Part shown: positions 35,758-61,463 of the stretch, in pieces
Layout of the letters: every line of letters starts with the position of its first letter
Position numbering within the stretch: the first letter of the stretch is position 1
NCBI GenBank assembly: GCA_965216565.1
Contig: OZ244170.1
Location: forward strand, 3,936,001 to 4,000,000
Reading direction: 5' to 3'
Length of the DNA stretch: 64,000 nt
Source of the DNA: Bythopirellula sp.
GTDB lineage: Bacteria; Planctomycetota; Planctomycetia; Pirellulales; Lacipirellulaceae
Made by a program: the position numbers and the translations under genes
Notes under the pieces: generated by a model
The model's database searches: none
Told to the model about the DNA's origin: nothing
Seen by the model: only the letters and a program-made list of their open reading frames with translations

Positions 35758-35951
35758 ACGACTCTTTCAAGAGAGTGAGTGCCCTATCTTCTTTATAGGA
35801 CCAATCTTACATGTTCTTGTTAAAAACGTTCGCCAAAGTGTTGGATGCCCCAGATTATCAAAACGTTCTGTGTAGGTTGCAATTCCCAGCTATTTGAGCC
35901 AAGATACGCGACTCTTCCACGGAATCCGGAACATTCTCAGGAGACAAGGTT

Positions 35952-43521: not shown

Positions 43522-44409
43522 ATGACTCCTTCAATTCAATACGTGCGAACAGCTCTTCTTGGATGCATGGCGATGCTATTTTCGTCTGCTCATGCCCTTG
43601 CGGAAGTCAGCGTGCAGACCGGTGATGGCCGTGCATTTTCCGGCCAGGTAGATAGCCGTACTTCCGATCAGGCTTTGTGGCTTCGTCACGAAGAGGAAGG
43701 CATCATTCTCACAAGTCGTGTCAGCTGGAACGATATCTCCTCGGCTGAGGTCGATGGCAAGTCAGTTGAGATTGATGAGCTATCCGATGGCGCAAACGAA
43801 TTGATATCGGTGCCAGACGCGGGTCTGCTGGTCGAATTTGGTCCACTCCCGCGTTTGATCCCACCCGCCCCACCGGCTCAGCGACGGGGGCGAATTACCA
43901 GCCTGGAGGTTGATGCAAGATTGGTGAATCTGGATCGCACCGCCGAACCCGATGGCTACGAGATTGTGATCGCTGCGATCGATGCCTACGGCCACGAAGT
44001 TCCCGTGCGTGGCAATTTGTACGTGCGGCTGCAAGGTGAACGCAACGAGCACTATTCCGGCAGAATTCGGTTTGAGAACCTTCAGCAGTGGAGTCAGCCA
44101 GTCTCTGAACACGACTTCGTCGACGGACTGGCGATCTATGCCTTGCGATTCCGTCGCGGCTTTGGACCGGAGTTCGATGACGAGCTCCGACCGGACGCTC
44201 AACTCAATGTGCGGCTGGGTGTTTTTGGCGAGGGCAACTACTCCGCGACCGTCCCTGTGCCACTTTGGGAGTTCAGTCCCTTCAAAGACAGACTCCAGAT
44301 GTTCGAAGGTAGCCGATTCTTCCGAGACGAAATCACGCATCGCACGCGGCACCTAAGTACAGATCCACCGGGAATCTATCGTCGGGTGTGGCGAAATCAG
44401 AGACGTTAG
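43522..44409 (+). CDS. Hypothetical secreted protein
   Basis: AGGAG RBS, signal peptide ending AHALA, two beta-rich regions joined by a Pro-rich linker. Confidence 0.75.
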   Translation: MTPSIQYVRTALLGCMAMLFSSAHALAEVSVQTGDGRAFSGQVDSRTSDQALWLRHEEEGIILTSRVSWNDISSAEVDGKSVEIDELSDGANELISVPDAGLLVEFGPLPRLIPPAPPAQRRGRITSLEVDARLVNLDRTAEPDGYEIVIAAIDAYGHEVPVRGNLYVRLQGERNEHYSGRIRFENLQQWSQPVSEHDFVDGLAIYALRFRRGFGPEFDDELRPDAQLNVRLGVFGEGNYSATVPVPLWEFSPFKDRLQMFEGSRFFRDEITHRTRHLSTDPPGIYRRVWRNQRR

Positions 44410-44579
44410 GTCTCGTCGGTAGAAGCTTGCTCGCCGTCGGGAGCTCGACGATCCTCGCCACTGCGGCGTTCTGTCTGAGGCGGCGTAGAATCCGCTTGCT
44501 GCGATTCTTGTCGACGCTCTTTCTCACGCTTCTCGAGAAGGGAGTTCAAATCATCCGGTACATTCAATCGATCTACCAT
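44406..44579 (-). CDS. 57-aa Arg-rich small protein, last gene of the pilus operon (not in ORF track)
   Basis: MVDRLNVPDDLNSLLEKREKERRQESQQADSTPPQTERRSGEDRRAPDGEQASTDET; starts 18 nt after the secretin stop and fills the gap to the convergent gene, with overlapping stop codons. Confidence 0.7.
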   Translation of the reverse strand: MVDRLNVPDDLNSLLEKREKERRQESQQADSTPPQTERRSGEDRRAPDGEQASTDET

Positions 44580-44597
44580 GGTATCAACTGCTCAGAT

Positions 44598-46343
44598 TTA
44601 GTTGGTGGGGTTCGGAGCAACTACGGAATGCTCGTGACTTGGCGTGGCTTCGAAGGGAAATCCATAGGGTGAGTAGGAGGCTGGATAACAGCCGGTGTCC
44701 TCGGCCGTTGGCGGCAGACGGTGCAATAATCCATATCTGGGGCGGCGTGGATTACGAAAGGTATCTGGCAAACGTGCTTCGTAGGGACGGGGATTAATAT
44801 CCAAAGCTCCCCTCGTCAGTGGTTCCAATGTACGCATTAGCTTGTGCGATTCGCGTTCGTTGATAATCGGTGTATAAGGCTGAATATGAGGTACGAGTGT
44901 GACAATGATTTCAGAGCGTTTCTTCTCGATGACACGTCGTTGGAAAATAACACCTACATAAGGCAGGTCGCCCAGCCAGGGGATCTTGGTTTGGATGTTA
45001 CTGTCTTGCTCTTGGATCAAACCACCAATCACCATGCCCTGGCCGTCGGAGAGGATAATATCGGTCTCCACTTCGGTCGTTTCTTCGGAGGGCAAACCTG
45101 TCTCGGGACTCACCTGGCCGGTGGACACTTCTGGCTTGATCCGCATCAATACGCGACCGTCGCGCGTGATGCGTGGAGTAACAGTTAGTACAACACCAAC
45201 ATCTAGAAACTGTATTTCCTCAAGTGTGCTTGTCTGTGTTGTGGTAACCACACGAAAGCCAAGTTGTTCGCCCACTTGCATGCGTGCTTGCTGACCACTA
45301 ACAGCGAGAACTTTGGGTGAAGCGAGCGTCTTGGCATCGGTTGTGTTTTGGAGGAGTTCTACCAAGCTTTGGATCGCACCACCGGTCGCTTCCAGAAAGA
45401 AAGCGGAAGTATTGGCTGAATTGGCGAGACCCACTGTGCGGAGGTTGAAGTCGTTTCCAGAAGCCGAGACACTGAGGGCATCGAGGTTCACGCCGCTGCG
45501 GCAATCGCTATCTAGTTCGATCTGCAGGATGTTGGCTTCGATCAGCACCTGCCGCGGCGGTTGATCGGCTTGGCAAACGTAGTCTTGAATTTGGGCCATG
45601 TTGCCCGGATAGTCGACGACGACGACTGCTTCGCGTGTGCGTCGGTTATCGCTGGAAGAGGTTTCTAATACCCATGATTTGCCACCTGGGGATAGCAACC
45701 CTTTGACTGCTTGATCGATGTCTGCGGCCGATGCAAAGTCGAGTTCTAGGACTTCAACGTGACGACCCCCTGCACTTGGCGAAAACGAATCGGCATTTTC
45801 CATGCTGGTGATCATGATAACGCCATTGGTGCTCGTCCAAGTGTGACCGGACGCCGAGAGTAATGCGTCAAGCACCTGTTGCCAGGGAACACGATCGAAA
45901 GACGCCGTAACAGGCGTTTCCGCAGTCGCGGCAAAGACGAGGTTTAGGTTCTGTGTCTCGGCTATCAGGCCGACAACTTGCCGGAGCGAAGCATCACGTA
46001 CCATCAAAGAAATGTCTCCCTCGTGGTGTTCGATGACCGCATCCCCCAACTGCTCGGGAGTTACCAGTGGAATGACTTGTTGATCAGCTGGTTTTGGTGG
46101 TTGCACCTGCACTGGCAGCGCTTCACCGACGGCATTTCCTAAGGTGTTTCTCAGCGTGTCGACGACCGAACTGGGCGAGAATCCCGAAGATCCCGCGGTA
46201 TTTGTCGCAACCGGAGAAGATTGTGCCTGAGAGTTTGGCGGCGGTAACACAGGTTGAGCGGTGGCTGGAGAAACGCACGAAAGCTCGAGGCATAGTAAGA
46301 GCGCCAACCAAACTCGGCATCGTGCCGATGGTTCCCGCCTCAT
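44598..46343 (-). CDS. Secretin (PilQ/GspD family)
   Basis: Signal peptide; N domains; DQPPRQVLIEANI, LASPKV, VGVVLTVTPRI, VIGGLI, KIPWLGDLPYVGVIF. Start could also be 46373. Confidence 0.92.
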   Translation of the reverse strand: MRREPSARCRVWLALLLCLELSCVSPATAQPVLPPPNSQAQSSPVATNTAGSSGFSPSSVVDTLRNTLGNAVGEALPVQVQPPKPADQQVIPLVTPEQLGDAVIEHHEGDISLMVRDASLRQVVGLIAETQNLNLVFAATAETPVTASFDRVPWQQVLDALLSASGHTWTSTNGVIMITSMENADSFSPSAGGRHVEVLELDFASAADIDQAVKGLLSPGGKSWVLETSSSDNRRTREAVVVVDYPGNMAQIQDYVCQADQPPRQVLIEANILQIELDSDCRSGVNLDALSVSASGNDFNLRTVGLANSANTSAFFLEATGGAIQSLVELLQNTTDAKTLASPKVLAVSGQQARMQVGEQLGFRVVTTTQTSTLEEIQFLDVGVVLTVTPRITRDGRVLMRIKPEVSTGQVSPETGLPSEETTEVETDIILSDGQGMVIGGLIQEQDSNIQTKIPWLGDLPYVGVIFQRRVIEKKRSEIIVTLVPHIQPYTPIINERESHKLMRTLEPLTRGALDINPRPYEARLPDTFRNPRRPRYGLLHRLPPTAEDTGCYPASYSPYGFPFEATPSHEHSVVAPNPTN

Positions 46344-46393
46344 GCTTCCTTGCACTGAGTTTACTTGCCGCATGTATTGCTCACGAACCTCGT

Positions 46394-46936
46394 TTAGCGT
46401 GATTTCGATTTAGTTAAAATCACACCTTGCGAAGTAATGTTGCTCACTTCATAGCCATCAATCTTGTCTCCAACTCGAACATGAGTGTCGCCGACTTTGG
46501 CAATTCGCTCTGAACCTGTAATCAAAACAATGCCGGTGCCCTCGTCTTGCATCTCATCTAATTGCAGATCGTGCTCAGTTTCTGCGACGATGTTCGAGTT
46601 CTCTCTTTGCACTTCCACTTCTAAAATGTTCTTGTACCAATCCGGCGTCGAAAGAGGATCAAGGCGAACGATTTGCTCGGTACTGAATTGAGGCCACTCA
46701 CGTTCAGCCCGCTTATCAGCCTCTTCCTTGAGTCTTCCTTCTTGTGTTTGGATACTTACATCTAGGTCTGAGCTTGACGTGCCGTTAGGCTCACTTGCTG
46801 CCACAGGTGATGGCCCATGCTGCGAGTCTGGTAGCTGCACGACGATCACAATGGCCAACACAGCCACCAGCACGCCAATAAGTGCTAGCTGCGAGCGCGT
46901 AACTCCAGCCTTATTCTGCTTCTTCTTGATCGTCAT
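46394..46936 (-). CDS. Bitopic accessory protein in PilP/GspC position
   Basis: Basic N-terminus, one TM, C-terminal VRVGDKIDGYEVSNITSQGVIL beta motif typical of PilP/GspC-HR folds; lies between pilO and secretin. Confidence 0.6.
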   Translation of the reverse strand: MTIKKKQNKAGVTRSQLALIGVLVAVLAIVIVVQLPDSQHGPSPVAASEPNGTSSSDLDVSIQTQEGRLKEEADKRAEREWPQFSTEQIVRLDPLSTPDWYKNILEVEVQRENSNIVAETEHDLQLDEMQDEGTGIVLITGSERIAKVGDTHVRVGDKIDGYEVSNITSQGVILTKSKSR

Positions 46937-46953
46937 TTTTATCGCTCTAACTG

Positions 46954-47535
46954 TTACGTCTTATTGGAATCGGTCAGGATGCGGTCATAATATACCGTCA
47001 ATGTTGCTAGCATCTTGTGTTCTTGGCCTTCTTCACTGTTGCTCACGGTCAATTGGGTAACGTCGGCAATCCATCTAGACTCGGAGAGGCCCTCTAAGAA
47101 CAAACACATGCTTGCATAACTGCCGGTGCAGTGTAGCTGCACATCGCTTTGACGATGGGTCGCTACCAAGGTTGGCTTTTCCATGGTGAGCTGTGAAATT
47201 TCCAGTCCACTGACCGCCGCAATGCTGTGAAGCGTTTTTGTAAGTTCCTCACCGTTCAATGGTTGGGAAAGTCGAGTGCGAATCTTCTCGCCTTTGGCAT
47301 CTAGTTTTGCTACATCTTTTTGTAGTTGGTGATGCAGTATGCTAACGGGTCCCGAACGTTGCAGAAAATTTGCCAACTGTTCGATGCGCTGCAAATCAGA
47401 AGCTTGCTGGTCCTGCACCGTGCCATATGCGAAGTAGTAGTAGGAACCAACGGCAATTGCCAAAAGAGCAAGACCGATGCCATGCAACACCAGCCCCAGC
47501 GAGACAGGTCGATTGTTGTGTGTGCTGTTCTTCAT
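46954..47535 (-). CDS. pilO: PilO-like alignment protein
   Basis: TM + coiled coil + CTGSYASMCLFLEGL ferredoxin-like core; synteny. Confidence 0.75.
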   Translation of the reverse strand: MKNSTHNNRPVSLGLVLHGIGLALLAIAVGSYYYFAYGTVQDQQASDLQRIEQLANFLQRSGPVSILHHQLQKDVAKLDAKGEKIRTRLSQPLNGEELTKTLHSIAAVSGLEISQLTMEKPTLVATHRQSDVQLHCTGSYASMCLFLEGLSESRWIADVTQLTVSNSEEGQEHKMLATLTVYYDRILTDSNKT

Positions 47536-47551
47536 TTCCGTTTACTTGGTG

Positions 47552-48121
47552 TTACAGGACGCAATCGATGCGAAAGGACTGCATCGGTTGCCGATTGACG
47601 ACGATCGTCTCGGTGTTGCGAACTTGGATATCTGCAAATGGCATCGAAGATCGGAGCTGTTGTACGAATAGCCCGACGGCGCTGGTGTCGATGCCAATTC
47701 CTGACACAGACATCTGCTCTTCCGGGGGATTGGAGGCCAGCGGACCTTGCTGGCGATAGGTAATGTCTTCGAGAAATACCCGGCCATGAGTCGCCTCAGC
47801 GGCACTGCCTACGATAGCCAAGAGAGTAGATGCCGGCGTATCTGTCGAAATCGCAAGCTCAAGCTCGTAATCTGTTCGGGTGGTAGAGATCCGACTGGTG
47901 AGTTTTGTGATCTCCGCCTTGGCTGCTCGGACAGGAGTGTATTGTGCTTCGAGCGCTTCCAGTTGGATTCTGTCGTTGCGGGCTGGCCACCAAATAGTAG
48001 CACCATGCACTGCAAGTGCGATAATCGTAAGGGCAAGGATCTTTGACCACTGGCCGAGCCGAGTGTGATAACACTGCCGATCGAGTGCCCGTTGACTCAT
48101 TAAATTGACGTAGGTATTCAT
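47552..48121 (-). CDS. pilN: PilN-like alignment protein
   Basis: N-terminal VNLM (INLLP-like) motif, TM, coiled coil, VSGIG...VGLFVQQL; ATGA overlap with pilM. Confidence 0.75.
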   Translation of the reverse strand: MNTYVNLMSQRALDRQCYHTRLGQWSKILALTIIALAVHGATIWWPARNDRIQLEALEAQYTPVRAAKAEITKLTSRISTTRTDYELELAISTDTPASTLLAIVGSAAEATHGRVFLEDITYRQQGPLASNPPEEQMSVSGIGIDTSAVGLFVQQLRSSMPFADIQVRNTETIVVNRQPMQSFRIDCVL

Positions 48122-49188
48122 CGTTTCTCCCACGCTAGAGCGGAAAGAGCAATTGCCGGGCCCAGTAAATGGGTCCAGTTGGCATCCACCAAGTTGTCGG
48201 TCTGTTGCCCGTTGCCGAACTGCCAACGTCGATGTTCCAGACCAAGTCTTTCGGTTAGCAGCGGCGCGATTCCATTGACGGCCGATCCGCCCCCAAACAT
48301 AAAGACGCCTTGGGGAATAATCTGGCGTCGCTGGGTTTGCAGATGCGACATAGTCCGCTGGATTTCGAATTCCAGCTTTTCGATTGGGCCAGAAATCGAA
48401 TCCAAGATCACTTGAGCTCGTTGGTCGCGGTTCGCTGTCGAGAGATCATGTTCTTCTAGTAGTTGCACTGCTTGTTTCTCATCGATGTCGAGTTCCGAGG
48501 TGATCGACTGTAGAACCTGCTTGAATCCACAATTCTTGAGAGGCCGAACATAAACGGGACGTCGGTTATGCACGATACAAACAGTTGCCTGGGTGTATCC
48601 CCAGTCGAGAGCGGCCCAGGTTTCCTTGCTCTTGCGAGGCAGTACCATCGATACTGCTCTGGCGAGAGCCAGTGGAGCACCGTCGATCGTTCGGCAATTC
48701 CAGCCCAGGCTCGATATTTCTTGGGCCAGATTGTCTGTCCATATTTGGGGTGCAGAGATGATGTTCGTCTTTAAGGGCGATGTGCCTTTCTCGGGTGTCT
48801 CCGCATGCCAAGCGGCACATTGCAAGTGCGCCGCTGGTTGGCAGGTTGCTGCTTCGACCAATTGTCGAAGTTTGCCTTGGCGGTTGGCTGCAGTGTCTAA
48901 TGCCCCGTCGACTTGATGTGTTCGACAGATACTCATTGGGAGAGCCGCAGCAACGTTCTTTCCCAGGAGATCGCGGCGTAAATCTGCGGCGGTGGCCATT
49001 TCTTCACTCGATCCGATGTACTTGCCCGAATCTGCTGATGTGAAGTCCCAGCCCATAGTGCGGGGAACAATGGCCGCTGCTGCAAGTTCCCAGCGCTTGT
49101 TCGACTGAACCACCTGCGCAACCTTCACGTGCGACGTGCCAACGTCGATACCGATCCAACCAGTTTTTTTTCGCTGAATTCCTAGCAT
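48118..49188 (-). CDS. pilM: PilM-like actin-fold protein
   Basis: IGIDVGTSHVKVAQ, ALDWG, MFGGGS. Confidence 0.85.
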   Translation of the reverse strand: MLGIQRKKTGWIGIDVGTSHVKVAQVVQSNKRWELAAAAIVPRTMGWDFTSADSGKYIGSSEEMATAADLRRDLLGKNVAAALPMSICRTHQVDGALDTAANRQGKLRQLVEAATCQPAAHLQCAAWHAETPEKGTSPLKTNIISAPQIWTDNLAQEISSLGWNCRTIDGAPLALARAVSMVLPRKSKETWAALDWGYTQATVCIVHNRRPVYVRPLKNCGFKQVLQSITSELDIDEKQAVQLLEEHDLSTANRDQRAQVILDSISGPIEKLEFEIQRTMSHLQTQRRQIIPQGVFMFGGGSAVNGIAPLLTERLGLEHRRWQFGNGQQTDNLVDANWTHLLGPAIALSALAWEKR

Positions 49189-49210
49189 GACAATCTCGTT
49201 GGTAGGTCCC

Positions 49211-50398
49211 TCATCGGTTAGCCAAAGTGGAGAGGTCGAACACAGGCAACATCACAGCCAGTACAACGATGGCCACCAGGGCGCCCATTCCGATTGTGAT
49301 CAACGGTTCGAGCAATCCGACGACCTGCCGCATCCGCGCCTCGGTGTCTTCCTCGTAGTAGGCTCCCAGCAGGTAGGTGACTTCACCCAAGTTTCCTGTG
49401 TTTTCGGCCGTCATCAGCATCTCGCGGGCCGATTCAGGGACAATCTCCGAGGTCTCAAGAATACTGCCCAGGCTGCGACCATTGAGTACAGCCTCTTCCA
49501 TTTCTTCCACAAGTTCGTGGTAATGGACGTTCTGCATGGCGACTTTTGTGAGCCGCAAGACATCGAGAAGCGGGACACCGCTTTCGAGCATCATGCCAAA
49601 CATTCGGCATACTCGACCAATGAGCTGCGAGCGATAGACCTTGCTAACAACTGGCATCTTGAGCCATAGCAAATCGAGTGAGCGGCGCCCGCCGTCTGTT
49701 TTTCGCCAGACTAACATTCCAGTTAACAGCGACCCAGCCAGAGGAAGCCACAACCACCAACGGCTGCGTAATTCGCTCGCGAGCATGAGAAGCACTTCAG
49801 TAACAAATGGCAGAACTAGTTCGTATTCTTCAAATATCTGCGAGAATCGGGGTAGGACGAACAGAACCAAGGCGACCAATACCGAAGAGGAAACGGCGAA
49901 CAACAGGATTGGATAGGTCATTAGCGCGCGGAGAGTACGCCGCGAGCGAATTTCTCCTCGTTGTACAGCCGCCAGTTGCTTGAGCACATCCGACATCTTT
50001 CCGGAGGCCTCGCCCGCAGCCACTGTTGCCACAAAAGTTGCTTCAAAGACTTCTGGGTGTTCGCGTAAAGCGTTGGAAAGCGGGTTCCCCGCCATCACGG
50101 AATCGTGGACTTCAGTCAGCACGTTTGCCAGGGCCGGTCTTTTGCATTGTCTGGCTAAGGAACCCAAGGCGGTAGCCACATCGACGCCAGAACGGGTCAT
50201 GATCGCGAGCTGCGAAGTAATCTCGGCAAGGGCATCTTTGGGAATCGAGTTGCCACCGAAACCCCAGCCCGCCGTCTCCTGATCGGACGAATCCCAGTTA
50301 GAATCGTCGGCCGAGGAAATTAGATCGCTAGCAGACATTTCCTGTTCGGAAATGCTGCCTTCGATCCACGGCATTGTGTCAGTTTCAGTAGCGTTCAT
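49211..50398 (-). CDS. PilC/GspF inner-membrane platform protein
   Basis: QLAIMTRSGV, AGEASG, LMTYP, MLESGVPL, LLEP, AVMLPVF. Confidence 0.92.
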   Translation of the reverse strand: MNATETDTMPWIEGSISEQEMSASDLISSADDSNWDSSDQETAGWGFGGNSIPKDALAEITSQLAIMTRSGVDVATALGSLARQCKRPALANVLTEVHDSVMAGNPLSNALREHPEVFEATFVATVAAGEASGKMSDVLKQLAAVQRGEIRSRRTLRALMTYPILLFAVSSSVLVALVLFVLPRFSQIFEEYELVLPFVTEVLLMLASELRSRWWLWLPLAGSLLTGMLVWRKTDGGRRSLDLLWLKMPVVSKVYRSQLIGRVCRMFGMMLESGVPLLDVLRLTKVAMQNVHYHELVEEMEEAVLNGRSLGSILETSEIVPESAREMLMTAENTGNLGEVTYLLGAYYEEDTEARMRQVVGLLEPLITIGMGALVAIVVLAVMLPVFDLSTLANR

Positions 50399-50458
50399 CT
50401 TTTTGTTCTATTGTTCGCTTTCATTGCGAAGGAGTGCTACGCAATTTGTCGGCCTTGG

Positions 50459-52237
50459 TTACTCCACGAATGCGATGCGAGCAACTTCTTCTAAACTCGA
50501 CTTTTCCTGCTCAGCCAAACGCAATCCACCCTCGAGCAAAGTGGGTAGGCCTTGTTCTGCGTACCAATCTCTGATTGATTCCAAGGGTGTGTTTTTTGCA
50601 ATCATGCGACGCAATTCGGCATCGGCGGGTAGCACTTCGTAAATACCCGTCCGTCCTTTAAACCCTGTATCGAAACACTCACGACACCCCTCTCCGCGTG
50701 AAAAACTGCGACGCAAGTCTCCTTGATAGTGGAGGGCTTGGAGGTATTCGGCAGGCGGATAGTAGTTCGTCTGACAGTTCGGGCATATCGTCCTGACCAG
50801 TCGCTGAGCTACGACCCCTACTAGTGCGGCGGCCAGCTTGTAGCTTTCCACCTCCATATCCAACATGCGAGTAATGGCGCTAATGCTGTCGTTGGTGTGC
50901 AACGTGCTGAGTACGAGATGACCAGTTAGCGCGGCCTGTACTGCCACCTGCGCAGTCTCGGCATCGCGGATTTCACCAACCATAATCACGTCGGGGTCTT
51001 GCCGAAGGATAGATCGTAAGGCCGAGGCGAACTTCATACCTCGTGTTCCATCGGCTTGCACTTGGTTGACAAGGTCAATCTGGTATTCCACCGGGTCTTC
51101 GACCGTCACGATATTTCGGCTTGGAGACTTGATGAGCTCCAAAGCGGAATAGAGAGTCGTCGTTTTTCCGCTGCCGGTCGGCCCAGTGACCAATACCAAG
51201 CCGTAAGGCTTCTTGAGCAATTGCTTAATGATGCCTAGCGTATCTGGAAGGATCCCCAACTCGTCGAGATTAAAGGTTAGCCGCTGCTTGTCGAGCACAC
51301 GAATCACCACCTTCTCGCCCATGACGGTCGGCAATGTGGAGACTCGCAAGTCGACTTCCTTGCCGTCGGCAATCACTTGGCACCGACCATCTTGCGGCAA
51401 TCGTTGTTCGGCAATATCGAGTCTGGCCATTACCTTGATACGGGAGATAATAGCCGGATAAATGTCGCGCCGCGGACGTAGCATTTCTACCAGTTGGCCA
51501 TCGATACGAAACCGCACGGTGCCAAACTTTCGACTAGGCTCGATGTGAATATCGCTGGCGTTCTTGCGGATCGCCTGCAACACCAGGTAGTTCACAAGAT
51601 TGATGACTGGGCTGCCGTCGACAAGTTCGTGGACGGACGAAATGTCCATTTCCGAACTGTCCATCTGCAATTCAACAGCCGACTCGTCCAAATCTGCGGT
51701 TACGGCATCTACACGAAAATCTTCTTCGTAAGCCCGCCTGAGCATTCGGTTGATTGACACCGAAAAGGCAAAGACCGGTTTCACTGTCAGCCCGGTGACA
51801 TGCTCGATTCGATCGATGGTGTCTAGATCTTGTGGCTCATCTGTTGCAATGATCAGAGAGTCGCGAACACGAAAGAGTGCCAACGACTGCAACTCTTCAG
51901 CCAGCTTATGTGGAATCAGCTTTACCGCTGCAGGGTCGAGCATTCCTTCACGAAGCCGGACCGCAGGGACGCCCAATTGCGCTTCCATGAATGGCAGCAA
52001 TTGGTCTTCGTTCGCAAAACCAAGTTCCAGCAACGACTCCCCAAGCTTCTGACCCTTTTGAGACTGATGGTTCAGCGCGGCTTCTAACTCTTCGGAGTCA
52101 ATAAGGTCGGCACCTAACAATCGCTGGCCTAGAGGCCCACGTGGAGTGTTAGTTTCGGAGGCAGCAAACATCGAGGATCGAATCGGAGATTCGGACCCTT
52201 CTGCGTTAGAAGTTGTGGGATTAGTGATGGTGCTCAT
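50459..52237 (-). CDS. PilB/GspE assembly ATPase with N-terminal MshEN-like domain
   Basis: ASDIHIEP, RLPQDGR, GPTGSGKTTTLY, TVEDPVE, LRQDPDVIMVGEIRD, TGHLVLSTLHTN, tetra-Cys; N-terminal PLGQRLL...Q / KLGESLL...Q tandem motif. Confidence 0.95.
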   Translation of the reverse strand: MSTITNPTTSNAEGSESPIRSSMFAASETNTPRGPLGQRLLGADLIDSEELEAALNHQSQKGQKLGESLLELGFANEDQLLPFMEAQLGVPAVRLREGMLDPAAVKLIPHKLAEELQSLALFRVRDSLIIATDEPQDLDTIDRIEHVTGLTVKPVFAFSVSINRMLRRAYEEDFRVDAVTADLDESAVELQMDSSEMDISSVHELVDGSPVINLVNYLVLQAIRKNASDIHIEPSRKFGTVRFRIDGQLVEMLRPRRDIYPAIISRIKVMARLDIAEQRLPQDGRCQVIADGKEVDLRVSTLPTVMGEKVVIRVLDKQRLTFNLDELGILPDTLGIIKQLLKKPYGLVLVTGPTGSGKTTTLYSALELIKSPSRNIVTVEDPVEYQIDLVNQVQADGTRGMKFASALRSILRQDPDVIMVGEIRDAETAQVAVQAALTGHLVLSTLHTNDSISAITRMLDMEVESYKLAAALVGVVAQRLVRTICPNCQTNYYPPAEYLQALHYQGDLRRSFSRGEGCRECFDTGFKGRTGIYEVLPADAELRRMIAKNTPLESIRDWYAEQGLPTLLEGGLRLAEQEKSSLEEVARIAFVE

Positions 52238-52569
52238 TGAATGAAGCTCCCGACGGCTGATTTTGTACCGTCATGGCACTCAAAATGACTTCCGACCCTA
52301 GTCACACGCAAGACTTCTTCACACAAAGGCGTAAGCCCAGAGAGTTTCACGGTTCCGCCGAGGTGATTGATGCGATCCCGCGCATCGAGCAAGGCATCGA
52401 GACCAGCACTATCCAACAAAGGAACACCGGTAAGATTTAGAACAACCATTGGCTGTCCACCGCTCAGGTTCGAGTCCAGAGTCTTTTCTAGGTCTTCAAC
52501 CGAATCGCTAATTAGAGGTCCCTGTAGATTTACTACGTCTACAGCACCTTGAGATTCCACTTGAAACAT
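52234..52569 (-). CDS. Stand-alone STAS (anti-sigma antagonist-like) protein
   Basis: VVLNLTGVPLLDSAGLDALL (conserved phosphorylatable Ser), GGTVKL; ATGA overlap with the ATPase gene. Confidence 0.9.
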   Translation of the reverse strand: MFQVESQGAVDVVNLQGPLISDSVEDLEKTLDSNLSGGQPMVVLNLTGVPLLDSAGLDALLDARDRINHLGGTVKLSGLTPLCEEVLRVTRVGSHFECHDGTKSAVGSFIQ

Positions 52570-52574
52570 TGCCG

Positions 52575-54398: not shown

Positions 54399-54439
54399 TT
54401 TGTTTTGCGTTGGTGGTCACGGCAGTGAAATCGACTCGA

Positions 54440-54829
54440 CTAGGAAACGGGAGTTGCCATTTGGTCAAGAACTGTTTTCACAAGTGCCGAGGGGCTAAAC
54501 GGCTTGGAAAAGACTGCATTTATTCCGAGTTCTTTCTGCAGTCGGGGTAGTTCCAATTCCAATCCTTTGGCAGTCAGCAAATTGATGGGACAGTCGACGT
54601 ACTCGGGCATTGATCGCAAATGCCCACAAAGTTCCAAGCCAGTCATCTCGGGCATCTGCTGGTCCGTAATCACCAGATCGAACTTCGTTTCTTGTGCCAA
54701 TTCGTACGCAATCCTGGCGTTCTTGGCTGTGACAGTTTCAAAGCCAGCCTCTTCCATGGCAAACTGGATGACCCTCGCCAGGGCAAGATTGTCATCTACT
54801 ATCAACACTTTTTTCAGTTCGTCGTTCAT
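54440..54829 (-). CDS. Single-domain response regulator (CheY-like)
   Basis: LIVDD, ITDQQMP (phospho-Asp), LLTAK, SKPF; no output domain. Confidence 0.92.
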   Translation of the reverse strand: MNDELKKVLIVDDNLALARVIQFAMEEAGFETVTAKNARIAYELAQETKFDLVITDQQMPEMTGLELCGHLRSMPEYVDCPINLLTAKGLELELPRLQKELGINAVFSKPFSPSALVKTVLDQMATPVS

Positions 54830-54884
54830 CAATACTGCCTAATTGCCTTTCAAGTCAGTGATCGACAGCTTCCAAGTCTGTGGC

Positions 54885-55319
54885 CTAGAAGTCGTCGTAA
54901 GTGGTAGCTCCGTCGCCCGAAGTTGCGCCAGTATTCGCAATGAATTCACCTGTGTCGGTATTGTACTTCCAACCGTGAGTCGGGGTTCCCGAAGCAACAA
55001 TCGGAGTGACGGTTGTTGCCTCGACGGTGTTTGTCATTGGAGCCACAGGGCTAGTTGGGAACTGTCCGCGGATGTAAGGGGCCAACGCAGTCTGCAGACT
55101 AGTAGCGGCATTCGCACAGGGTGGCAGTGTTCCACCGTTGTCCGCAGTGTAAAGCTCAATGGCATCACGGACGATCGTAAGTGTTTGCTTCAGACCGTTG
55201 TCGGTCGCAGTTTGCGAAGTGCTGAGGAACTTGGGAGCTGCAACACCGGCCAAGATTCCTAGAATCAGGACCACAACGACGAGTTCAACCAGGGTGAACG
55301 CAGAATTCTTCTTGTTCAT
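54885..55319 (-). CDS. Major type IV pilin / GspG-like pseudopilin
   Basis: Class III signal MNKKNSA|FTLVELVVVVLILGILAGVAAP (E5, P22), AIELY..DN; GAGG RBS; first gene of the operon. Confidence 0.9.
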   Translation of the reverse strand: MNKKNSAFTLVELVVVVLILGILAGVAAPKFLSTSQTATDNGLKQTLTIVRDAIELYTADNGGTLPPCANAATSLQTALAPYIRGQFPTSPVAPMTNTVEATTVTPIVASGTPTHGWKYNTDTGEFIANTGATSGDGATTYDDF

Positions 55320-55729
55320 TGTTTTAGTACCTCAGATAAATTTCAAATTTGTGTAAGCCCTTGCAGGCCAACTTCTGTTTGACGTGACTCTAAAGGCAAC
55401 AATAGCTCTCAAATGCGTCAGAGAGCCCTACTGCCGTTAATGGGACCCACCTAGGTAGATCAATTAGTTCTTGAAAAAGTAGCTTGTACTATTTGACAAG
55501 AGTCAAACAACTCTGCTCAGGAGTCGCCAGAAATCTGTCTCTAAGCTGCACGATCGCACTAGGCGGCACAATCGGACTCTCATTGCCAACAGCTGCAACT
55601 TGTAAGCTATTATTTTCTGGTGGGAAAACGTCCTGCTGCGGAGAAAGCTCGCTTTTACGAGTAATTAAGTTTTCTGGGGTAATCCGCTTGAGGTTGTCTC
55701 GCAGTAAAGACTTAGTAGTGAAATTCGAT

Positions 55730-57379
55730 ATGGCATTAGAAATCGCATCACAAACCGAATCAGCCATCCAAGGCGCGAAGAAGAGCCTTAGCTCTTTGGA
55801 ACAAGCACTCGGTGCCCGTTTTGGAATTTGGAATTTAGCACCCGGTGGCGAATTTGAGCCCTTGGACGTTCCAGACAACAGCTCAACCGATATCTCGGTG
55901 GTTCTGGCCAGTCTGGAGCAGGCAAGCCAACAGCAAAAGACTGTATTGCAGTCGTTCGCCGGGGACCAATGTCAATTGACGGCCCCATGGCCTGCAGGCC
56001 ACACAACTCGTCTGTTTGTTACGACTACGGTTGACGATTCGCAGGCAAGTCTCGCAGCAGAGCTATTGCAGGTCACCATCCAGGGAATCAAGCAGCAATC
56101 CGAGATCCAAGACCTGAAGGAAGAGAATGCCGCCTACTTAATGCAACTCAATGAGGATATGGAAGAACTCGTCTTTCTCCGCTCAATTGCTGATAAATTG
56201 GCACTGGGTGATCTGTCGCTTAATTCCGAAAAGCTGCTGCAATACATCTTGCCCGCCCTGGGTGAGTCGACCGGAGTAGAAGCCGTTCACTTTGTTGATG
56301 GACGACGGGGGACTACGCCGGAAATTGTCGAATCCTGGTTCTGTGGCAATTGCCCGCAGCGTGTGGATATAGACATAGTCAACCTGCTTGCGGAAGACTA
56401 TTGCCCGAACGTGCAAGAGTCACCCATAGTCGAAAACAACGTACAAGACAGAGAATACGGTGCTAAGTACGAAGGCGTTGAGGGCTTCGCTATTGTGCCA
56501 GTCTCCACTCACTTGATCACATTTGGCTGGATAGTGGCTATCAATCGGAAAACAGAACAATCCAATAAGCACCAGCATCCAGTGTGGCAACTTGGCAACG
56601 ACGAGCTTGGGACTTGTGAGGTTTCACTCATGAGTACCACCGCAGCAATGGTGGCCTCCTACTCTCACAATGTTACGTTATTTGACGAACGTGAAGCACT
56701 TATGCTAAGTGTCGTGCGGACTTTAGTTTCTGCGATCGAATCTCGCGACCAATACACTTGCGGCCATAGCGAACGTGTTGCCAGATATGCCAAGAGGCTA
56801 GCCAAGGAATTGGGGTACGATCAAGAAGGCTGCAAACAGATTTACCTCACAGGTCTGCTGCACGACATTGGGAAGATTGGGTTACCCGACTCCGTCCTGA
56901 AGAAGCCTGGCTCGCTCACTAAGGAAGAATTCGCCGAGATCATGAAGCATCCCGACCTGGGTTGGGCAATTCTTCGTGAGTTGGAGCCCATGGAGTACGT
57001 GCTACCGGGAGTGTTGCATCACCACGAACGTGCCGATGGCAAAGGCTATCCCGACGGTTTGATGAGAGACAATACTCCTTTGGAGGGCCGATTGTTGGCC
57101 GTTGTCGATGCGTTCGACGCCATGACCTCCGACCGTCCCTATCGTAAAGGAATGCCCTGGGAGCAAGCGGTCAGCATTCTGCTGGACGGCGCCGATTCCC
57201 AGTGGGATGCCGAAGTCGTCGACAAATTCGTCGCTATTATGCCAGACATGCTTAGTATCCGCGATAACTATCGTCGTCCGCCGCTTCCGGTCAGAAAACC
57301 TGAAGAAGAACAAGCAGAAAGTCAGGCGCTCCCGAAGGACGAGAACTTCGACGTCAGCGAACTACTCAGCGCTCACTAA
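55730..57379 (+). CDS. HD-GYP cyclic-dinucleotide phosphodiesterase with GAF-like N-terminal region
   Basis: GHSERVA, LHDIGKIG, HHERADGKGYPDGL, DAFDAMTSDRPYR. Start uncertain (track gives 55484). Confidence 0.92.
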   Translation: MALEIASQTESAIQGAKKSLSSLEQALGARFGIWNLAPGGEFEPLDVPDNSSTDISVVLASLEQASQQQKTVLQSFAGDQCQLTAPWPAGHTTRLFVTTTVDDSQASLAAELLQVTIQGIKQQSEIQDLKEENAAYLMQLNEDMEELVFLRSIADKLALGDLSLNSEKLLQYILPALGESTGVEAVHFVDGRRGTTPEIVESWFCGNCPQRVDIDIVNLLAEDYCPNVQESPIVENNVQDREYGAKYEGVEGFAIVPVSTHLITFGWIVAINRKTEQSNKHQHPVWQLGNDELGTCEVSLMSTTAAMVASYSHNVTLFDEREALMLSVVRTLVSAIESRDQYTCGHSERVARYAKRLAKELGYDQEGCKQIYLTGLLHDIGKIGLPDSVLKKPGSLTKEEFAEIMKHPDLGWAILRELEPMEYVLPGVLHHHERADGKGYPDGLMRDNTPLEGRLLAVVDAFDAMTSDRPYRKGMPWEQAVSILLDGADSQWDAEVVDKFVAIMPDMLSIRDNYRRPPLPVRKPEEEQAESQALPKDENFDVSELLSAH

Positions 57380-57425
57380 GGACCAAGTTTCTCCCGCGAA
57401 ATTGGACCATTCAAGGACACCTCTC

Positions 57426-57896
57426 GTGAAAACTCCCCGCCCAGCGCTCACGATGGTTGAACTGGTTGTCGTTGTCTTGATTGTAGGCATCATGGCTGCT
57501 GCTATCTCGCCGAGAGTGGCTAGCACGATGACTACCTCACGGGTGCGTGCGGCTGCTCAAATTATTGCCTCCGATATCGAAATGGCCGGTCATCGTGCGA
57601 AGGTCCGCGGCACCCCGCAAGAGGTTAAGTTCTCGCTCGGCAATAGTTCCTATGAATTATTGAACATGAAGCACCTTGACCATCCAGGACAAAACTACAT
57701 GGTCGATCTGACTGCCTCTCCTTACGACGCATTGTTGGATAGTGTTTCGTTTGGCTCTGACGGTACTTCGAAGTCGCTATGGTTCAACCGCTTCGGACGA
57801 CCGGACTTCGGAGGTTCGATTGTCGTAAGCGCAGGAAACAAACAGCGTACAGTGCTGGTAGACGGAGTCACCGGAAAGGCAACTGTGCAGCCATGA
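57426..57896 (+). CDS. Minor pilin, FimT/GspH-like
   Basis: GTG start after AAGGA; PRPA|LTMVELVVVVLIVG; C-terminal FNRFGRP..GGSIVV..VLVDGVTG. Confidence 0.85.
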   Translation: MKTPRPALTMVELVVVVLIVGIMAAAISPRVASTMTTSRVRAAAQIIASDIEMAGHRAKVRGTPQEVKFSLGNSSYELLNMKHLDHPGQNYMVDLTASPYDALLDSVSFGSDGTSKSLWFNRFGRPDFGGSIVVSAGNKQRTVLVDGVTGKATVQP

Positions 57897-58981
57897 CTCG
57901 ACGAGCCGGATACACCTTAATCGAATTAGTCGTGAGTATGGCAGCAGCTGCCACGTTGATGGTGGGGCTGGCATCATGTCTTCACATTGCTTTTCGAGTC
58001 TTCGATGCCCAACTGGCATCCATTCGAGCATCGAAAGCTGCTGAAGTCCAAGCCGATATCATGCGAGATTTGGGTCGCGCTACGATTTTCACTAGCAGAT
58101 CCAGCGATGCGGTGACTTTCAAAGTTCCCGATGAAAACGGCGACAACGTTGAGGAGACTATCAGCTACTCGTTCGACCCCAATGGCGAGTTATCGATGAC
58201 GTTCAACGGCACGTCGAGCATTCTCCTTAGAGACCTAAGTTCTTCCCAGTTCAGTTATCTTGCACGATCGCAAGCTGGCAGTGCGCCGGTACCTGCGATG
58301 TTTGACGTCAGCAAGTGGGGAACCAGGTGGGACGGAAGCTCTACCGGGTCGGTCGTCTATGAAGAATTTACCGAGGAGAAGGAATCCTCGGATGTCAATC
58401 TGATCTCAGTTGATCTACCTGGAGGAACCGTCGCCGGAGACCTGCTGATTCTGGCGGTAGCATTTAATGGCCAAGAGTCCTTCGTCGATCCGTCGGGTTG
58501 GACACGGATTCATGCATCGGAAGATAACCAAGGCAGAGTATCACTCGGCGTGTGGTGGAAGATTGCTGATTCTCCAGAAGCCTTTAGTCACTCGGTGGCG
58601 TGGTCCGATAGCGACGAGGCCTACGGCTGGATGATGCGATTTACGGGCCACAATACGAGCAATCCGATCGAGGCTTCGGCGAATGCAAAAGGAAATTCCA
58701 TCTCACCCACCTCACCCGCCGTGAGCACGAGCGTAGACAACTGTTTGATTCTCCGACTAGGCGCTTTTGATCGCAATTATATTACGACGGACGACGCAGG
58801 AGTTACTGACCATACAACGATAACTATGGATAGTAGCAGCTCAAACGGTTCTTCGACTTCCGGTGGAGCGGCTTACGCAACACTAACCACGGCAGGCGAC
58901 AGCGGGTCAGAGACTTTCCAGCTTAGCCAGCAGGAACAGTTTGTCACCGTCACAATCGCAATTGCACCGGAGGCAAATTAA
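57893..58981 (+). CDS. Minor pilin, PilW/GspJ-like, with extra C-terminal beta domain
   Basis: MTRRAG|YTLIELVVSM; ATGA overlap; appended domain VDLPGGTVAGDLLILAV..PSGWT. Confidence 0.85.
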   Translation: MTRRAGYTLIELVVSMAAAATLMVGLASCLHIAFRVFDAQLASIRASKAAEVQADIMRDLGRATIFTSRSSDAVTFKVPDENGDNVEETISYSFDPNGELSMTFNGTSSILLRDLSSSQFSYLARSQAGSAPVPAMFDVSKWGTRWDGSSTGSVVYEEFTEEKESSDVNLISVDLPGGTVAGDLLILAVAFNGQESFVDPSGWTRIHASEDNQGRVSLGVWWKIADSPEAFSHSVAWSDSDEAYGWMMRFTGHNTSNPIEASANAKGNSISPTSPAVSTSVDNCLILRLGAFDRNYITTDDAGVTDHTTITMDSSSSNGSSTSGGAAYATLTTAGDSGSETFQLSQQEQFVTVTIAIAPEAN

Positions 58982-59634
58982 TGCTTTGCAGAGTACCAGA
59001 GTTGTGCAAGCTTTTTGGCAGTCGGCGGACGTGCCGCACGGGCATCTCGCACGTGGAAGTGCTTGTTTGCATCCCGCTAGTGGGTGTCATGCTGGTCAGT
59101 GCGATGAACTCTACAGGTAGTATCGTACGCACTTGGAATTTTGCTCACGATCAGCACCGCGCTCGCGCAATCGCAGAGAATTTGATGGCGGAAATTCTGC
59201 AACAACAGTACGAAGAACCTGACGATACGCCCACCAATGGGAGGGAATCGGGCGAGTCGGCCGCTACTCGACTAAACTGGGATGACGTGGACGACTACAA
59301 CGGCTGGAGCCAATCGCCACCTGCTGATAAATCGGACACGGTGCTCAGCGGCTATGTCGGTTGGTCGCGAGCTGTGAGCATAGCATATGTTGAGCTTAAC
59401 GATCCTACCCAAACCACCGCTGATGACGAGGGTGTAAAACGAATCACAGTAACAGTCACAAATCCTACTGCAGAAACAATCGTACTGGTTGCCTACCGAT
59501 CCAAATGGGGTGCGCTCGAGGAACGACCTCTACTTAACACCAACATTCAGGGATTCGTGTCGCACGAATTGGAAGCTAGTGGTAGCACGTTTCACGATGG
59601 GGTGCAGTTGCCAAACCATTCGGAGGACGAGTGA
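58981..59634 (+). CDS. Minor pilin, PilV/GspI-like
   Basis: RRTCRTG|ISHVEVLV; AENLMAEIL; WDDVDDYNGW; VKRITVTV; TAATG coupling. Confidence 0.75.
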   Translation: MLCRVPELCKLFGSRRTCRTGISHVEVLVCIPLVGVMLVSAMNSTGSIVRTWNFAHDQHRARAIAENLMAEILQQQYEEPDDTPTNGRESGESAATRLNWDDVDDYNGWSQSPPADKSDTVLSGYVGWSRAVSIAYVELNDPTQTTADDEGVKRITVTVTNPTAETIVLVAYRSKWGALEERPLLNTNIQGFVSHELEASGSTFHDGVQLPNHSEDE

Positions 59635-61463
59635 TGTATCGCAACCGGTCAAAGATAAAGTCTGGCCAGCGAGTTTACCGTCTTGCAAGCCTAAGTTCTC
59701 TGCGGTCAACTCGCATAGGCTCGCTGTATCTTTCTGTGTTGGTTACCTGTACCGTCGTAAGCGTCTTGGCATTGGCAGGGATGCGTGCGGCGCGTGTGCA
59801 CTTGAAATCCACCACTACCGGAGTTTATGCAAGCCAGGCACGCTTGCTTGCCAAATCGGCCATCGAATTGGGGATCGCACAACTGAGAGCGAATTCCGAT
59901 TGGCGGACGTTCTATGCTGTCGATACGCCCTACCCTTCGCCGGCGGTCGCCAGTGCGGGAGGAACCTTCTTTTGGCGACTCAAAACCAATGGAGGTTCAA
60001 ACCGATCTCTGCAAGGAATCGGCACGGTGGGCGATGCTGTTTGCACTTTGGAAGTCAAACTGTGGCAGCAACCAGACCTCGATTGTACCCTACTCGCTGG
60101 CGGCGATATCACCGTGAACACCGGTTGTTCGCTCACTTGCGAAGACGGACCGATCTGTGCCAACGGTGACTATAACAATTTAGGTTCCACTACGGCGGAT
60201 GTTGAGGCTCAGTCGATTACTGGCAATACCGTTGTAGGTACCGAAACTGTTCCAGGCAATCAACGTATCTTGCCGAGCCCAGATCCAATCTTCGAATATT
60301 ACGAGAGTCAAGGCACTCCGCTCACTCCAGCAAACATGATGGGCACGCTGATAGTTGCCCAAACGGTACTCAGTCCAAATTCCAGCTGGGGCGCCACAAA
60401 TCCGAATGGGATTTACGTAATCGATGCCGGAAATAGCAACGTCTCAATTTCTGACAGTCGGATTGTCGGCACGATTGTCGTAACAAACTTGGATCCCGGA
60501 AAAAAAGTGATTGTCGCTCAACACGTGAACTGGGAGCCAGCCCACCCAAACTATCCATCGCTATTAGTGGAAGGCGACCTTGCCATCGAGCTCAGAGATG
60601 GAGAACTAACCGAATACGTGATCTTTCCGCCTTCGTTTAACCCGTTGGGCACGCCTTATCAGGGAGACGAAGACAGCGATTGGAATGACAGCTTTGCCTC
60701 ATCACTGGCAGGCGTCGTTTATTGTACTGGTAACTTAGAAATCGACGGCAGTACCTCTGCAGATAGATCCCCTGATCTACGGGGTGTATTTATCGCCGAT
60801 GGTAATTGCATAATTCGAGACCGCATGTTCCCAACAATAAAACACGATCCAATTCCAGCGATGGACCCACCTCCCGGGTTTGGTGCCTTTGAAACCATGG
60901 AATCTGAGTCGGCCGTATCGATGTTGAGAAGCTATTCAGGCAGCGGTTTAACCGATGAACTACTAGACGACAAGCAATGGGCTCAATACTTTAAACCCAA
61001 TCTGCCAGCCGAGGCAACCGGCTGGCGAATCACCCGAGCCGAATTCTATTGCGTCAAGGAATCTAACAATAGAAATTTTGAGGTAACTCTCTATACTCCA
61101 GACGGGGGTAATATGCCCTCGAGCACGGTGATCGATTCAGTCTCGGCCAACAGCAACGATTTAAGTTCCTCGCTGAGCTGGCAAGGATTCGACTTCAGCG
61201 GGACAGCCACAATTCCGGTCGGCGATGGCGTATGCCTGGCACTGACAACTGCCGTAAGTCAAGCTCCACTGAAGCTTGAGTATTTAAGCGGCGGAGTGTC
61301 TCAACCCGACTCGGCACTAATCACGGGGGATCCCTCTTGGAACAGCTTTGAAACCGACCAAGCACTCCTTTGCCGAGTTTACGGAGTGTATTACACAGAA
61401 TCTGGAGCGTCCAAACCGGTCGTCATCGAACCGGGTAGCTGGCGTCAAATAGATAGTGACTAG
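59631..61463 (+). CDS. Large minor pilin, PilX/GspK-like, with appended domains
   Basis: RIG|SLYLSVL (no E5, as in PilX/GspK), QARLLAKSAIELG, C-terminal PGSWRQ. Confidence 0.8.
   Translation: MMYRNRSKIKSGQRVYRLASLSSLRSTRIGSLYLSVLVTCTVVSVLALAGMRAARVHLKSTTTGVYASQARLLAKSAIELGIAQLRANSDWRTFYAVDTPYPSPAVASAGGTFFWRLKTNGGSNRSLQGIGTVGDAVCTLEVKLWQQPDLDCTLLAGGDITVNTGCSLTCEDGPICANGDYNNLGSTTADVEAQSITGNTVVGTETVPGNQRILPSPDPIFEYYESQGTPLTPANMMGTLIVAQTVLSPNSSWGATNPNGIYVIDAGNSNVSISDSRIVGTIVVTNLDPGKKVIVAQHVNWEPAHPNYPSLLVEGDLAIELRDGELTEYVIFPPSFNPLGTPYQGDEDSDWNDSFASSLAGVVYCTGNLEIDGSTSADRSPDLRGVFIADGNCIIRDRMFPTIKHDPIPAMDPPPGFGAFETMESESAVSMLRSYSGSGLTDELLDDKQWAQYFKPNLPAEATGWRITRAEFYCVKESNNRNFEVTLYTPDGGNMPSSTVIDSVSANSNDLSSSLSWQGFDFSGTATIPVGDGVCLALTTAVSQAPLKLEYLSGGVSQPDSALITGDPSWNSFETDQALLCRVYGVYYTESGASKPVVIEPGSWRQIDSD

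Follow-up and report, generated by a model that had tools for sequence, protein, structure and literature searches.

A planctomycete type IV filament locus with built-in signalling genes and a STAS protein co-inherited with the assembly ATPase

The window analysed here, 64,000 nucleotides (nt) of a single-contig 5.2-Mb genome of Bythopirellula sp. (OZ244170.1), carries a type IV filament locus in which a histidine kinase, a lone receiver, an HD-GYP protein and a stand-alone STAS protein are encoded together with the filament machine. The order of its genes, the intact catalytic residues of its signalling proteins, the co-inheritance of STAS and assembly ATPase and an upstream motif shared with other loci are directly observed. 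By analogy with a STAS subunit of another ATPase, the STAS protein is likely to be a bound regulatory subunit of the motor ATPase, and the locus is likely to represent an undescribed way to switch filament assembly on and off.

The STAS gene is inherited with the ATPase gene

An earlier note, made from the sequence alone, had described a minus-strand operon running from a pilin gene to a small Arg-rich open reading frame, and a divergent operon of an HD-GYP gene and four minor pilin genes. All 17 genes were found in the claimed order and on the claimed strands, 12 on the minus and five on the plus strand (Table 1). The kinase gene indeed stops 5 nt ahead of the STAS start, and STAS and ATPase genes overlap by the 4 nt ATGA.

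In relatives collected through the kinase, STAS lies directly ahead of the ATPase gene in all 36 Planctomycetota loci that hold an ATPase. When the search started from STAS, 75 of 400 genomes matched, and among the 29 best matches, which were examined, the ATPase gene is directly downstream in 28, while the gene upstream is a kinase in 17, an HD-GYP gene in four, a receiver gene in two and none that we recognised in six. Sixteen of these 29 loci belong to genomes that the kinase-first set had covered; among the 13 new ones the ATPase is present in 12. As the upstream neighbour varies and the ATPase is near-constant downstream, STAS follows the ATPase more closely than it follows the kinase. 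Only some ATPases of the PilB/GspE type are so accompanied: one of five in this genome, and, in five other genomes, five of the 30 loci fetched (from 34 matches), one per genome.

An ATPase tree of 68 rows was built, from which Tad, some PilT, five long-branch rows and near-identical genus rows were left out. Its 32 STAS-linked rows form two clades, one of 25 rows that includes this locus (support 100/99) and one of seven (100/89), and a joint single clade appeared in 0 of 200 bootstrap trees. The STAS tree shows the same two-way split with moderate support (73/89), across families that hold both types. In the second ATPase lineage a member of the same STAS family precedes the ATPase, with an HD-GYP or receiver gene directly upstream of it (loci L099, L101, L106, L107, L112, L113 and L114); the sister ATPases of this lineage, in L144 and L145, stand without STAS.

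The STAS protein itself is under strong constraint. All 37 aligned sequences have Ser54, and homologues fall into 969 clusters at E≤1e-15; in the best 120 of these, 118 are exactly 111 amino acids (aa) long and 119 carry the Asp-Ser motif. Longer fusion proteins were not seen among 8000 scored candidates, which is weak evidence.

Conservation of the cassette in Planctomycetota

At E≤1e-60 the kinase had matches in 19 of 24 same-genus genomes and 2 of 16 genomes from other families and, in a phylum-wide set of 400 genomes with three candidates per genome scored, in 24. The kinase-centred sample comprises 40 stretches, namely 18 of the 21 non-own matches from the genus and other families, 20 of the 24 phylum-wide matches and two others; several stop at contig ends. 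STAS is present in 38, the ATPase in 36, the pilin in 35, the receiver and the platform in 34 each, and HD-GYP in 31. Because the gene order of the locus recurs in relatives from two classes, the layout is not due to chance, and the synteny of signalling and filament genes, which the earlier note had proposed to survey, extends across the phylum.

The complete divergent layout is retained within the genus. In another class the pilins have moved behind PilO, and receiver and HD-GYP genes are shifted jointly or missing from the stretch; these two genes adjoin in divergent, tandem and displaced layouts (loci L080, L082, L083 and L084).

An upstream motif shared with other pilus, motility and c-di-GMP genes

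The divergent intergenic region (55320-55730) was aligned with those of 14 same-genus relatives. Three conserved boxes with the core AGCTA-N2-3-TT lie between the operons, two facing the pilin and one the HD-GYP gene, and define a strand-oriented consensus, RAGCTAnnTT(TG). A matrix made from 33 sites of the relatives only, chosen by pattern and position, gives the three copies of the window 19.0, 17.4 and 13.6 bits. Genome-wide it exceeds 14 bits at 76 sites, of which 40 are intergenic as against 12.6 expected by length. Twenty-four such sites face genes outside the window (22 of the 24 Pfam-checked), and in 11 cases the gene belongs to a pilus, Tad or flagellar-motor set or encodes an HD-GYP or HDOD protein. 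Genes and loci that have the motif upstream include motAB and a FliL-like gene, two TadA genes and one for a Tad prepilin peptidase, a second pilin/receiver-PilB locus, one HD-GYP gene and two HDOD genes. In a category of pilus and c-di-GMP genes, a same-strand site above 12 bits precedes 12 of 102 leading genes, against 33 of 2502 others (odds ratio 10, p 7e-8), the category being taken from whole search lists plus a pilin pattern but drawn up after the hits were seen; for opposite-strand sites the figures are 4 of 102 and 25 of 2502.

The association recurs within the genus, where TadA has an own-strand site in 17 of 17 loci (one of 18 was dropped as too short), none on the opposite strand and 0.14 in shuffles. 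Own-strand sites also precede the second receiver-PilB locus in 13 of 13, motA in 9 of 17 and an HDOD-GGDEF gene in 7 of 17. A second filament cluster (L236, genome positions 1546500-1553000) combines a double-GGDEF gene, a divergently oriented pilin gene and an MshEN ATPase gene that a lone receiver gene directly precedes; the upstream motif is present there too, in 13 of 13 relatives.

Because of its orientation and position, we infer that the motif is a putative promoter. The earlier note had placed control at the post-translational level. This is supported in part, the signalling genes being syntenic with the machine and intact in their catalytic residues, but post-translational control alone is too narrow a description, because both operons share the conserved motif with other pilus, flagellar and cyclic di-GMP (c-di-GMP) genes; control is likely to be both transcriptional and post-translational.

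The consensus sequences of sigma-54 and sigma-28 were compared with the motif by eye and did not fit. The motif resembles the −7 box of Bacteroides sigma-ABfr, given as TAnnTTTG (PMC7366714): many copies of the motif contain TAnnTTTG and are likewise strand-oriented upstream of genes. The motif differs in an additional conserved 5' AGC, in the small set of genes that it precedes and in having no clear −33 TTTG. The genome holds 31 matches to sigma-70 region 2, and the motif was found upstream of none of the three sigma genes checked. A short RpoD/RpoS-like sigma factor that lacks region 1.1 is encoded at genome positions 34900-35760 (L253), in addition to three long RpoD-like sigma factors of the genome. 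It was considered as reader of the motif and set aside, as PDB, plasmid and NCBIfam comparisons gave no specific link and its own upstream region lacks the motif.

Signalling proteins and the MshEN domain

On their sequences, the signalling proteins are intact in their catalytic residues. The H-box His393 of the kinase is kept in 41 of 41 rows and the acceptor Asp of the receiver in 35 of 35, and the HD, HHE, GYP and metal-binding residues of the HD-GYP protein are invariant in 30 of 30. The model of the latter (predicted local distance difference test, pLDDT, 85) places two alpha/beta domains and coiled coils ahead of the catalytic domain, and it contains no receiver domain. We call the two N-terminal domains GAF-like, provisionally, from weak Pfam GAF matches in 4 of 30 members and from the secondary structure of the model. 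Relatives in PDB include 5z7c and 4mcw, and among them are c-di-GMP and 3'3'-cyclic GMP-AMP (3'3'-cGAMP) phosphodiesterases.

The N terminus of the ATPase carries the MshEN motif of two 24-residue repeats five residues apart. Gly is kept in 37 of 37 rows at three positions and Gln58 in 33 of 37, and the Leu positions are kept as well.

The type of filament

According to the definition of a ‘generic’ member of the type IV filament superfamily (PMC6668835), in the main text of which the word stem Planctomyc- is absent, ATPase, platform and major pilin occur together. All three are present in the cluster (PF00437, PF00482 and PF07963, each above its cut-off), together with a secretin (PF00263), and two A24 prepilin peptidases are encoded elsewhere in the genome. 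The cluster fits this generic definition and none of the named subtypes cleanly. Of the traits of type IVa pili (T4aP), it has the PilM, PilN and PilO alignment complex, with Pfam matches just above the cut-offs. The earlier note had called the next protein P-like: its position is conserved, but it has an N-terminal hydrophobic anchor without the lipobox Cys, no PilP match and only a weak GspB-type match, and so is not a recognisable PilP lipoprotein. The retraction ATPase PilT is absent from the cluster, PilT-like genes lying elsewhere in the genome. Among the traits of type II secretion systems (T2SS), GspC and GspL are unmatched and GspM is matched only weakly. For MSH pili, no second ATPase or TPR gene that could be MshM or MshN is found in the locus, and in the tree the ATPase lies apart from the presumed MshE of Aeromonas (L169, which sits on a long branch).

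The ATPase scores 561.3 bits against GspE (TIGR02533, cut-off 630.25) and 558.6 against PilB (TIGR02538, cut-off 675.65). The reference labels of the tree were checked, the row labelled Aero_PilB being a GspE; the backbone of the tree does not place the system as T4aP, T2SS or MSH, and the ATPase lies outside the GspE pair.

The claim that the major pilin is GspG-like agrees with the fold of its model (pLDDT 91.9), the best match of which is the pseudopilin EpsG (4lw9; Z 6.6, root-mean-square deviation 2.7, 83 residues aligned), followed by a true pilin, Clostridium difficile PilA1 (Z 5.5, only 1.1 below EpsG), and by PulG (Z 5.2). Among profile matches PulG is best with 51.4 bits, Geobacter and Thermus pilins being less than 4 bits behind, and the GspG profile TIGR01710 gives 43 bits (cut-off 88.85). 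F1, E5 and P22 are invariant in 34 rows. Minor pilin 2 ranges from 170 to 620 aa among relatives, minor pilin 4 also varies widely, and in one relative (L071) minor pilin 4 carries a CBM_4_9 domain. Because of this variation in length and of the carbohydrate-binding module, a role of minor pilins 2 and 4 as tip adhesin would fit. As the product, a filament for surface attachment that lacks a retraction motor of its own is more likely than a secretion pseudopilus.

A family of small arginine-rich proteins

Sixteen relatives have a conserved counterpart of the 57-aa Arg-rich protein, and ten of its residues are invariant. A single-sequence search returned only the protein itself, and in the ESM Atlas it matched unnamed clusters, under 0.9. 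A profile search among 1.84 billion proteins gave 350 representatives at E≤0.001. The best 150 of them have a median length of 61 aa; L[IVL]EKR is present in 148, EKR followed by RR in 149 and a [DE]RR-x2-4-[DG]RR repeat in 96. The gene is single-copy in this genome and occurs in 24 of 200 order-level genomes, in all 24 within 1.5 kb of a secretin gene and in 23 directly downstream of it on the same strand. Judged by this conservation, the open reading frame encodes a real, unnamed protein family.

A DRR-rich peptide of Caulobacter CleD binds c-di-GMP (PMC7382256). The Arg-rich protein is likewise short and probably disordered, with DRR-type repeats. It differs from CleD in lacking the DRR-x11-(R/K)RxxD spacing and the tyrosines, in standing alone and in its conserved LIEKR box. 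Because the repeat spacing differs, the comparison is an analogy only.

Features of the locus and of the surrounding window

Table 1. Genes and motif copies of the filament locus, with positions in the window
Feature	Position	Strand	Evidence
Exported-looking 295-aa Planctomycetota protein, unnamed; membership uncertain	43522-44409	plus	often flanks cluster
Arg-rich 57-aa protein, unnamed family	44406-44579	minus	N-terminal LIEKR box, then [DE]RR repeats; no Pfam
Secretin	44598-46373	minus	PF00263 141 bits
Membrane-anchored 180-aa protein at PilP/GspB/MshK position	46394-46936	minus	weak PF16537, 15-24 bits, below cut-off; position conserved in relatives
PilO-like	46954-47535	minus	PF04350 25.4 bits (cut-off 22)
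PilN-like	47552-48121	minus	PF05137 25.1 bits (cut-off 22.8)
PilM-like	48118-49188	minus	PF11104 35.6 bits (cut-off 27)
PilC/GspF platform (T2SSF)	49211-50398	minus	PF00482 162 bits
PilB/GspE-type assembly ATPase, tandem MshEN motif and T2SSE	50459-52237	minus	NF053729 52.2 bits (cut-off 38)
Stand-alone STAS protein, 111 aa, Ser54 at SpoIIAA/MlaB phospho-site position	52234-52569	minus	PF01740 52 bits
Membrane sensor histidine kinase, His393	52575-54398	minus	two hydrophobic segments, weak sCache, PAS, HisKA, HATPase_c
Single-domain receiver, phospho-acceptor Asp57	54440-54832	minus	PF00072 78 bits
Major pilin, class III signal, GspG/EpsG-like globular domain	54885-55319	minus	PF07963 above cut-off
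Promoter-like motif copy facing pilin operon, 13.6 bits	55395-55412	minus	
Promoter-like motif copy facing pilin operon, 19.0 bits	55472-55489	minus	
Promoter-like motif copy facing HD-GYP operon, 17.4 bits	55600-55617	plus	
HD-GYP phosphodiesterase-type protein, two alpha/beta sensor-type domains, coiled coil	about 55730-57379	plus	PF13487 135 bits
Minor pilin 1, GspH/FimT-like	57426-57896	plus	TIGR01708 33.5 bits, below cut-off
Minor pilin 2, extra C-terminal domain variable among relatives	57893-58981	plus	PF07963 above cut-off
Minor pilin 3, GspI/PilV-like	58981-59634	plus	TIGR01707 24 bits, below cut-off
Minor pilin 4, GspK/PilX-like, large variable domains	59631-61463	plus	NF037980 weak

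The window contains no PilT, prepilin peptidase or GGDEF gene and no RsbW-type anti-sigma gene, in agreement with the earlier note; PilT-like ATPases, the A24 peptidases, six strong GGDEF matches and one RsbW-type kinase are encoded elsewhere in the genome. The further claim that the window lacks a DNA-binding regulator applies to the locus only, because genes for a LysR protein (19712-20689) and a sigma-54-interaction protein (5143-6714) lie far off in the window. An Rfam search of 43000-64000 gave no riboswitch or other RNA family beyond one chance-level match.

The 295-aa protein flanks the secretin side of the cluster in some genomes and the minor-pilin side in others. It was rejected as a core part, being present in order-level genomes that have no kinase match and, in some genomes, away from the cluster. 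At a distance of 2 kb, a gene for a membrane Ser/Thr protein kinase lies at 40771-42384. The last minor pilin gene faces, at 61675-62373, a convergent gene for a Cys-rich, secreted-looking 232-aa protein that has no Pfam or NCBIfam match and was not found in the loci of relatives. At 27720-32003 a 1428-aa protein with a beta-helix and three laminin-G-like domains is encoded, a possible adhesin or polysaccharide enzyme.

Discussion

The model that we favour, and to which we would give about an even chance, is that the kinase, acting through the lone receiver and the HD-GYP protein, lowers c-di-GMP at the MshEN ATPase, that STAS is a bound regulator of this ATPase, and that the locus belongs to a shared attachment and motility programme. 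His393 of the kinase would phosphorylate Asp57 of the receiver, which would act in trans on the HD-GYP protein, itself without a receiver domain, and so lower c-di-GMP near the MshEN domain. There, bound c-di-GMP would gate filament extension in the manner of MshE. The Ser54 face of STAS would bind the ATPase, as MlaB does on MlaF, and tune its activity or stability, while the 57-aa protein may bind c-di-GMP or dock near the secretin. A sigma factor or other regulator would transcribe both operons together with Tad pili, the second PilB system, the flagellar stator and other c-di-GMP genes.

Several observations weigh against this model. The first MshEN Arg (R9 of MshE) is Pro35 here, the 37 rows having 21 Pro, 14 Arg and two Lys, and thus the Arg expected of an MshEN receptor at motif position 1 is missing; the second (R38 of MshE) is Lys64, with Arg in 12 of 37 rows, and the Gly18 position is Asp. 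Since Arg9, which like Gln32 matters for c-di-GMP binding by MshE (PMC5013675), is replaced by Pro, binding of c-di-GMP by this domain appears plausible but unsure. The closest solved HD-GYP structures include a 3'3'-cGAMP enzyme, so that c-di-GMP is only the predicted substrate. The divergence of STAS in step with the ATPase is also expected from plain inheritance of the cassette; related genomes are not independent samples, and being inherited together is no proof of contact. Receiver and HD-GYP genes are missing from 6 and 9 of the 40 fetched stretches, respectively, some of them cut by contig ends; HD-GYP, receiver and kinase are kept without STAS or filament genes in two of the 40 (L041 in G003 and L076 in G174); and in L075 kinase, STAS and ATPase stand without platform genes alongside. 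Of 25 further cassette loci, most of them distant, 18 have no motif site above 12 bits. Finally, the modelled pilin appears to fold most like EpsG.

Some of these points suit a different flow of information, in which the filament machine would serve as a surface sensor whose state is relayed by kinase, receiver and HD-GYP protein to the c-di-GMP pool of the whole cell, these proteins not gating the local motor. The survival of the signalling triad in the two loci without pilus genes, the degenerate MshEN motif of this genus, the lack of a cyclase in a cluster whose genome has its strong GGDEF matches elsewhere, and the link that the shared motif makes with other genes for motility and c-di-GMP all agree with it. 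Nevertheless, the Gly, Leu and Gln positions of MshEN are kept, and the overlap of the STAS and ATPase genes points to the motor as target, so we consider such a sensor unlikely. The nature of the output is a separate matter, compatible with the signalling model: a T2SS-like pseudopilus that exports proteins would explain the EpsG and PulG matches of the pilin, the four GspH/I/J/K-like minor pilins, the lack of PilT in the cluster and a platform that scores highest to GspF. We regard this as possible, though doubtful in view of the full set of PilM, PilN and PilO in place of GspL and GspM, the narrow lead of PulG over Geobacter and Thermus pilins and the PilA1 match, the large variable minor-pilin domains, one of them a carbohydrate-binding module, and an ATPase that has a tandem MshEN motif and does not join the GspE pair.

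Two further alternatives concern the partner of STAS. As a classical anti-anti-sigma factor it would feed assembly status back to a sigma factor that reads the shared motif. The protein has the fold and phospho-site Ser of SpoIIAA and RsbV, Ser54 aligning with the site whose role in SpoIIAA is described in 10.1101/2020.04.27.064196; homologues are named ‘anti-sigma factor antagonist’ in databases; and a regulon-like motif exists in a genome rich in sigma-70 region-2 matches. Against this, neither an anti-sigma kinase, a phosphatase nor a sigma gene was recognised in the locus, where STAS is instead fixed ahead of an ATPase. The single RsbW-type kinase of the genome (its one strong HATPase_c_2 gene) has a STAS neighbour of its own, the sigma genes checked lack the motif, and STAS is kept in lineages where the motif is mostly not found, which together make this role quite improbable. 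STAS could also be a connector that binds the HD-GYP protein or the GHKL domain of the kinase, its place before the ATPase being operon inheritance only. Anti-sigma kinases that bind STAS proteins have the GHKL fold, and the kinase is directly upstream of STAS in 37 of the 38 STAS-containing loci of the kinase-centred sample. Starting from the kinase biases this figure, whereas the STAS-first search finds the ATPase downstream far more regularly than the kinase upstream, and L076 and L041 retain the kinase without STAS; we therefore hold a connector to be very unlikely.

The favoured model, with STAS as regulator of the motor, has partial precedents. PilM/N/O-type genes, a small membrane protein gene and a secretin gene lie in a row in MSHA clusters, as they do in this locus. 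MshE of the Vibrio cholerae MSHA pilus is an MshEN c-di-GMP receptor (PMC5013675), and in both systems the assembly ATPase has a tandem 24-5-24 MshEN motif and the cluster lacks a retraction ATPase. They differ in that kinase, receiver, HD-GYP and STAS are built in here, no MshM/MshN-like gene was recognised, the first MshEN Arg is replaced and the ATPase stands apart from the presumed Aeromonas MshE. In Xanthomonas citri a small adaptor connects the N-terminal domain of the extension ATPase with signalling by c-di-GMP (PilB-PilZ-FimX; PMC8389850). STAS would be a comparable small adaptor, a candidate from gene arrangement; here, unlike there, it is STAS and not PilZ, HD-GYP and not GGDEF-EAL, and all genes are co-encoded. 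In Escherichia coli the stand-alone STAS protein MlaB is a subunit of the ATPase MlaF, with a conserved Ser/Thr at the interface (10.1101/2020.04.27.064196). The STAS protein described here also stands alone with a conserved Ser, and its ATPase partner is a candidate known from genes; MlaF is an ABC ATPase, whereas the candidate partner is a secretion/pilus ATPase.

The earlier note did not recognise the architecture from characterised systems, and no published account of the architecture, the cassette, the small protein or the motif was found in full-text literature, most subscription journals being outside its coverage; supplementary lists of MshEN proteins (PMC5013675) and of generic systems (PMC6668835) may include planctomycete members. 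The domains are all of known kinds; what appears undescribed is their combination, together with the dedicated STAS family, the small protein and the motif. At its most far-reaching, the locus could exemplify an unnamed, phylum-wide filament subtype in which a phospho-switchable STAS subunit of the extension ATPase, a split receiver/HD-GYP pair that adjusts local nucleotide levels together with an Arg-rich c-di-GMP sponge, a Bacteroidota-like promoter class read through an alternative sigma factor, and co-ordination with Tad pili and the flagellar motor would form a master circuit for the passage from swimming to attachment, a proposal that we put forward as improbable in its entirety.

Planctomycetes are covered with fibres and alternate between swimming and attached life, and to our knowledge hardly anything is known of how they control filament assembly. 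The locus offers a candidate for a new class of pilus-motor regulator in its STAS protein, an unannotated candidate family of tiny nucleotide-binding proteins, and a candidate promoter motif by which an attachment and motility regulon would be defined. If STAS does bind the ATPase, the principle of MlaB would be extended from ABC transporters to secretion ATPases.

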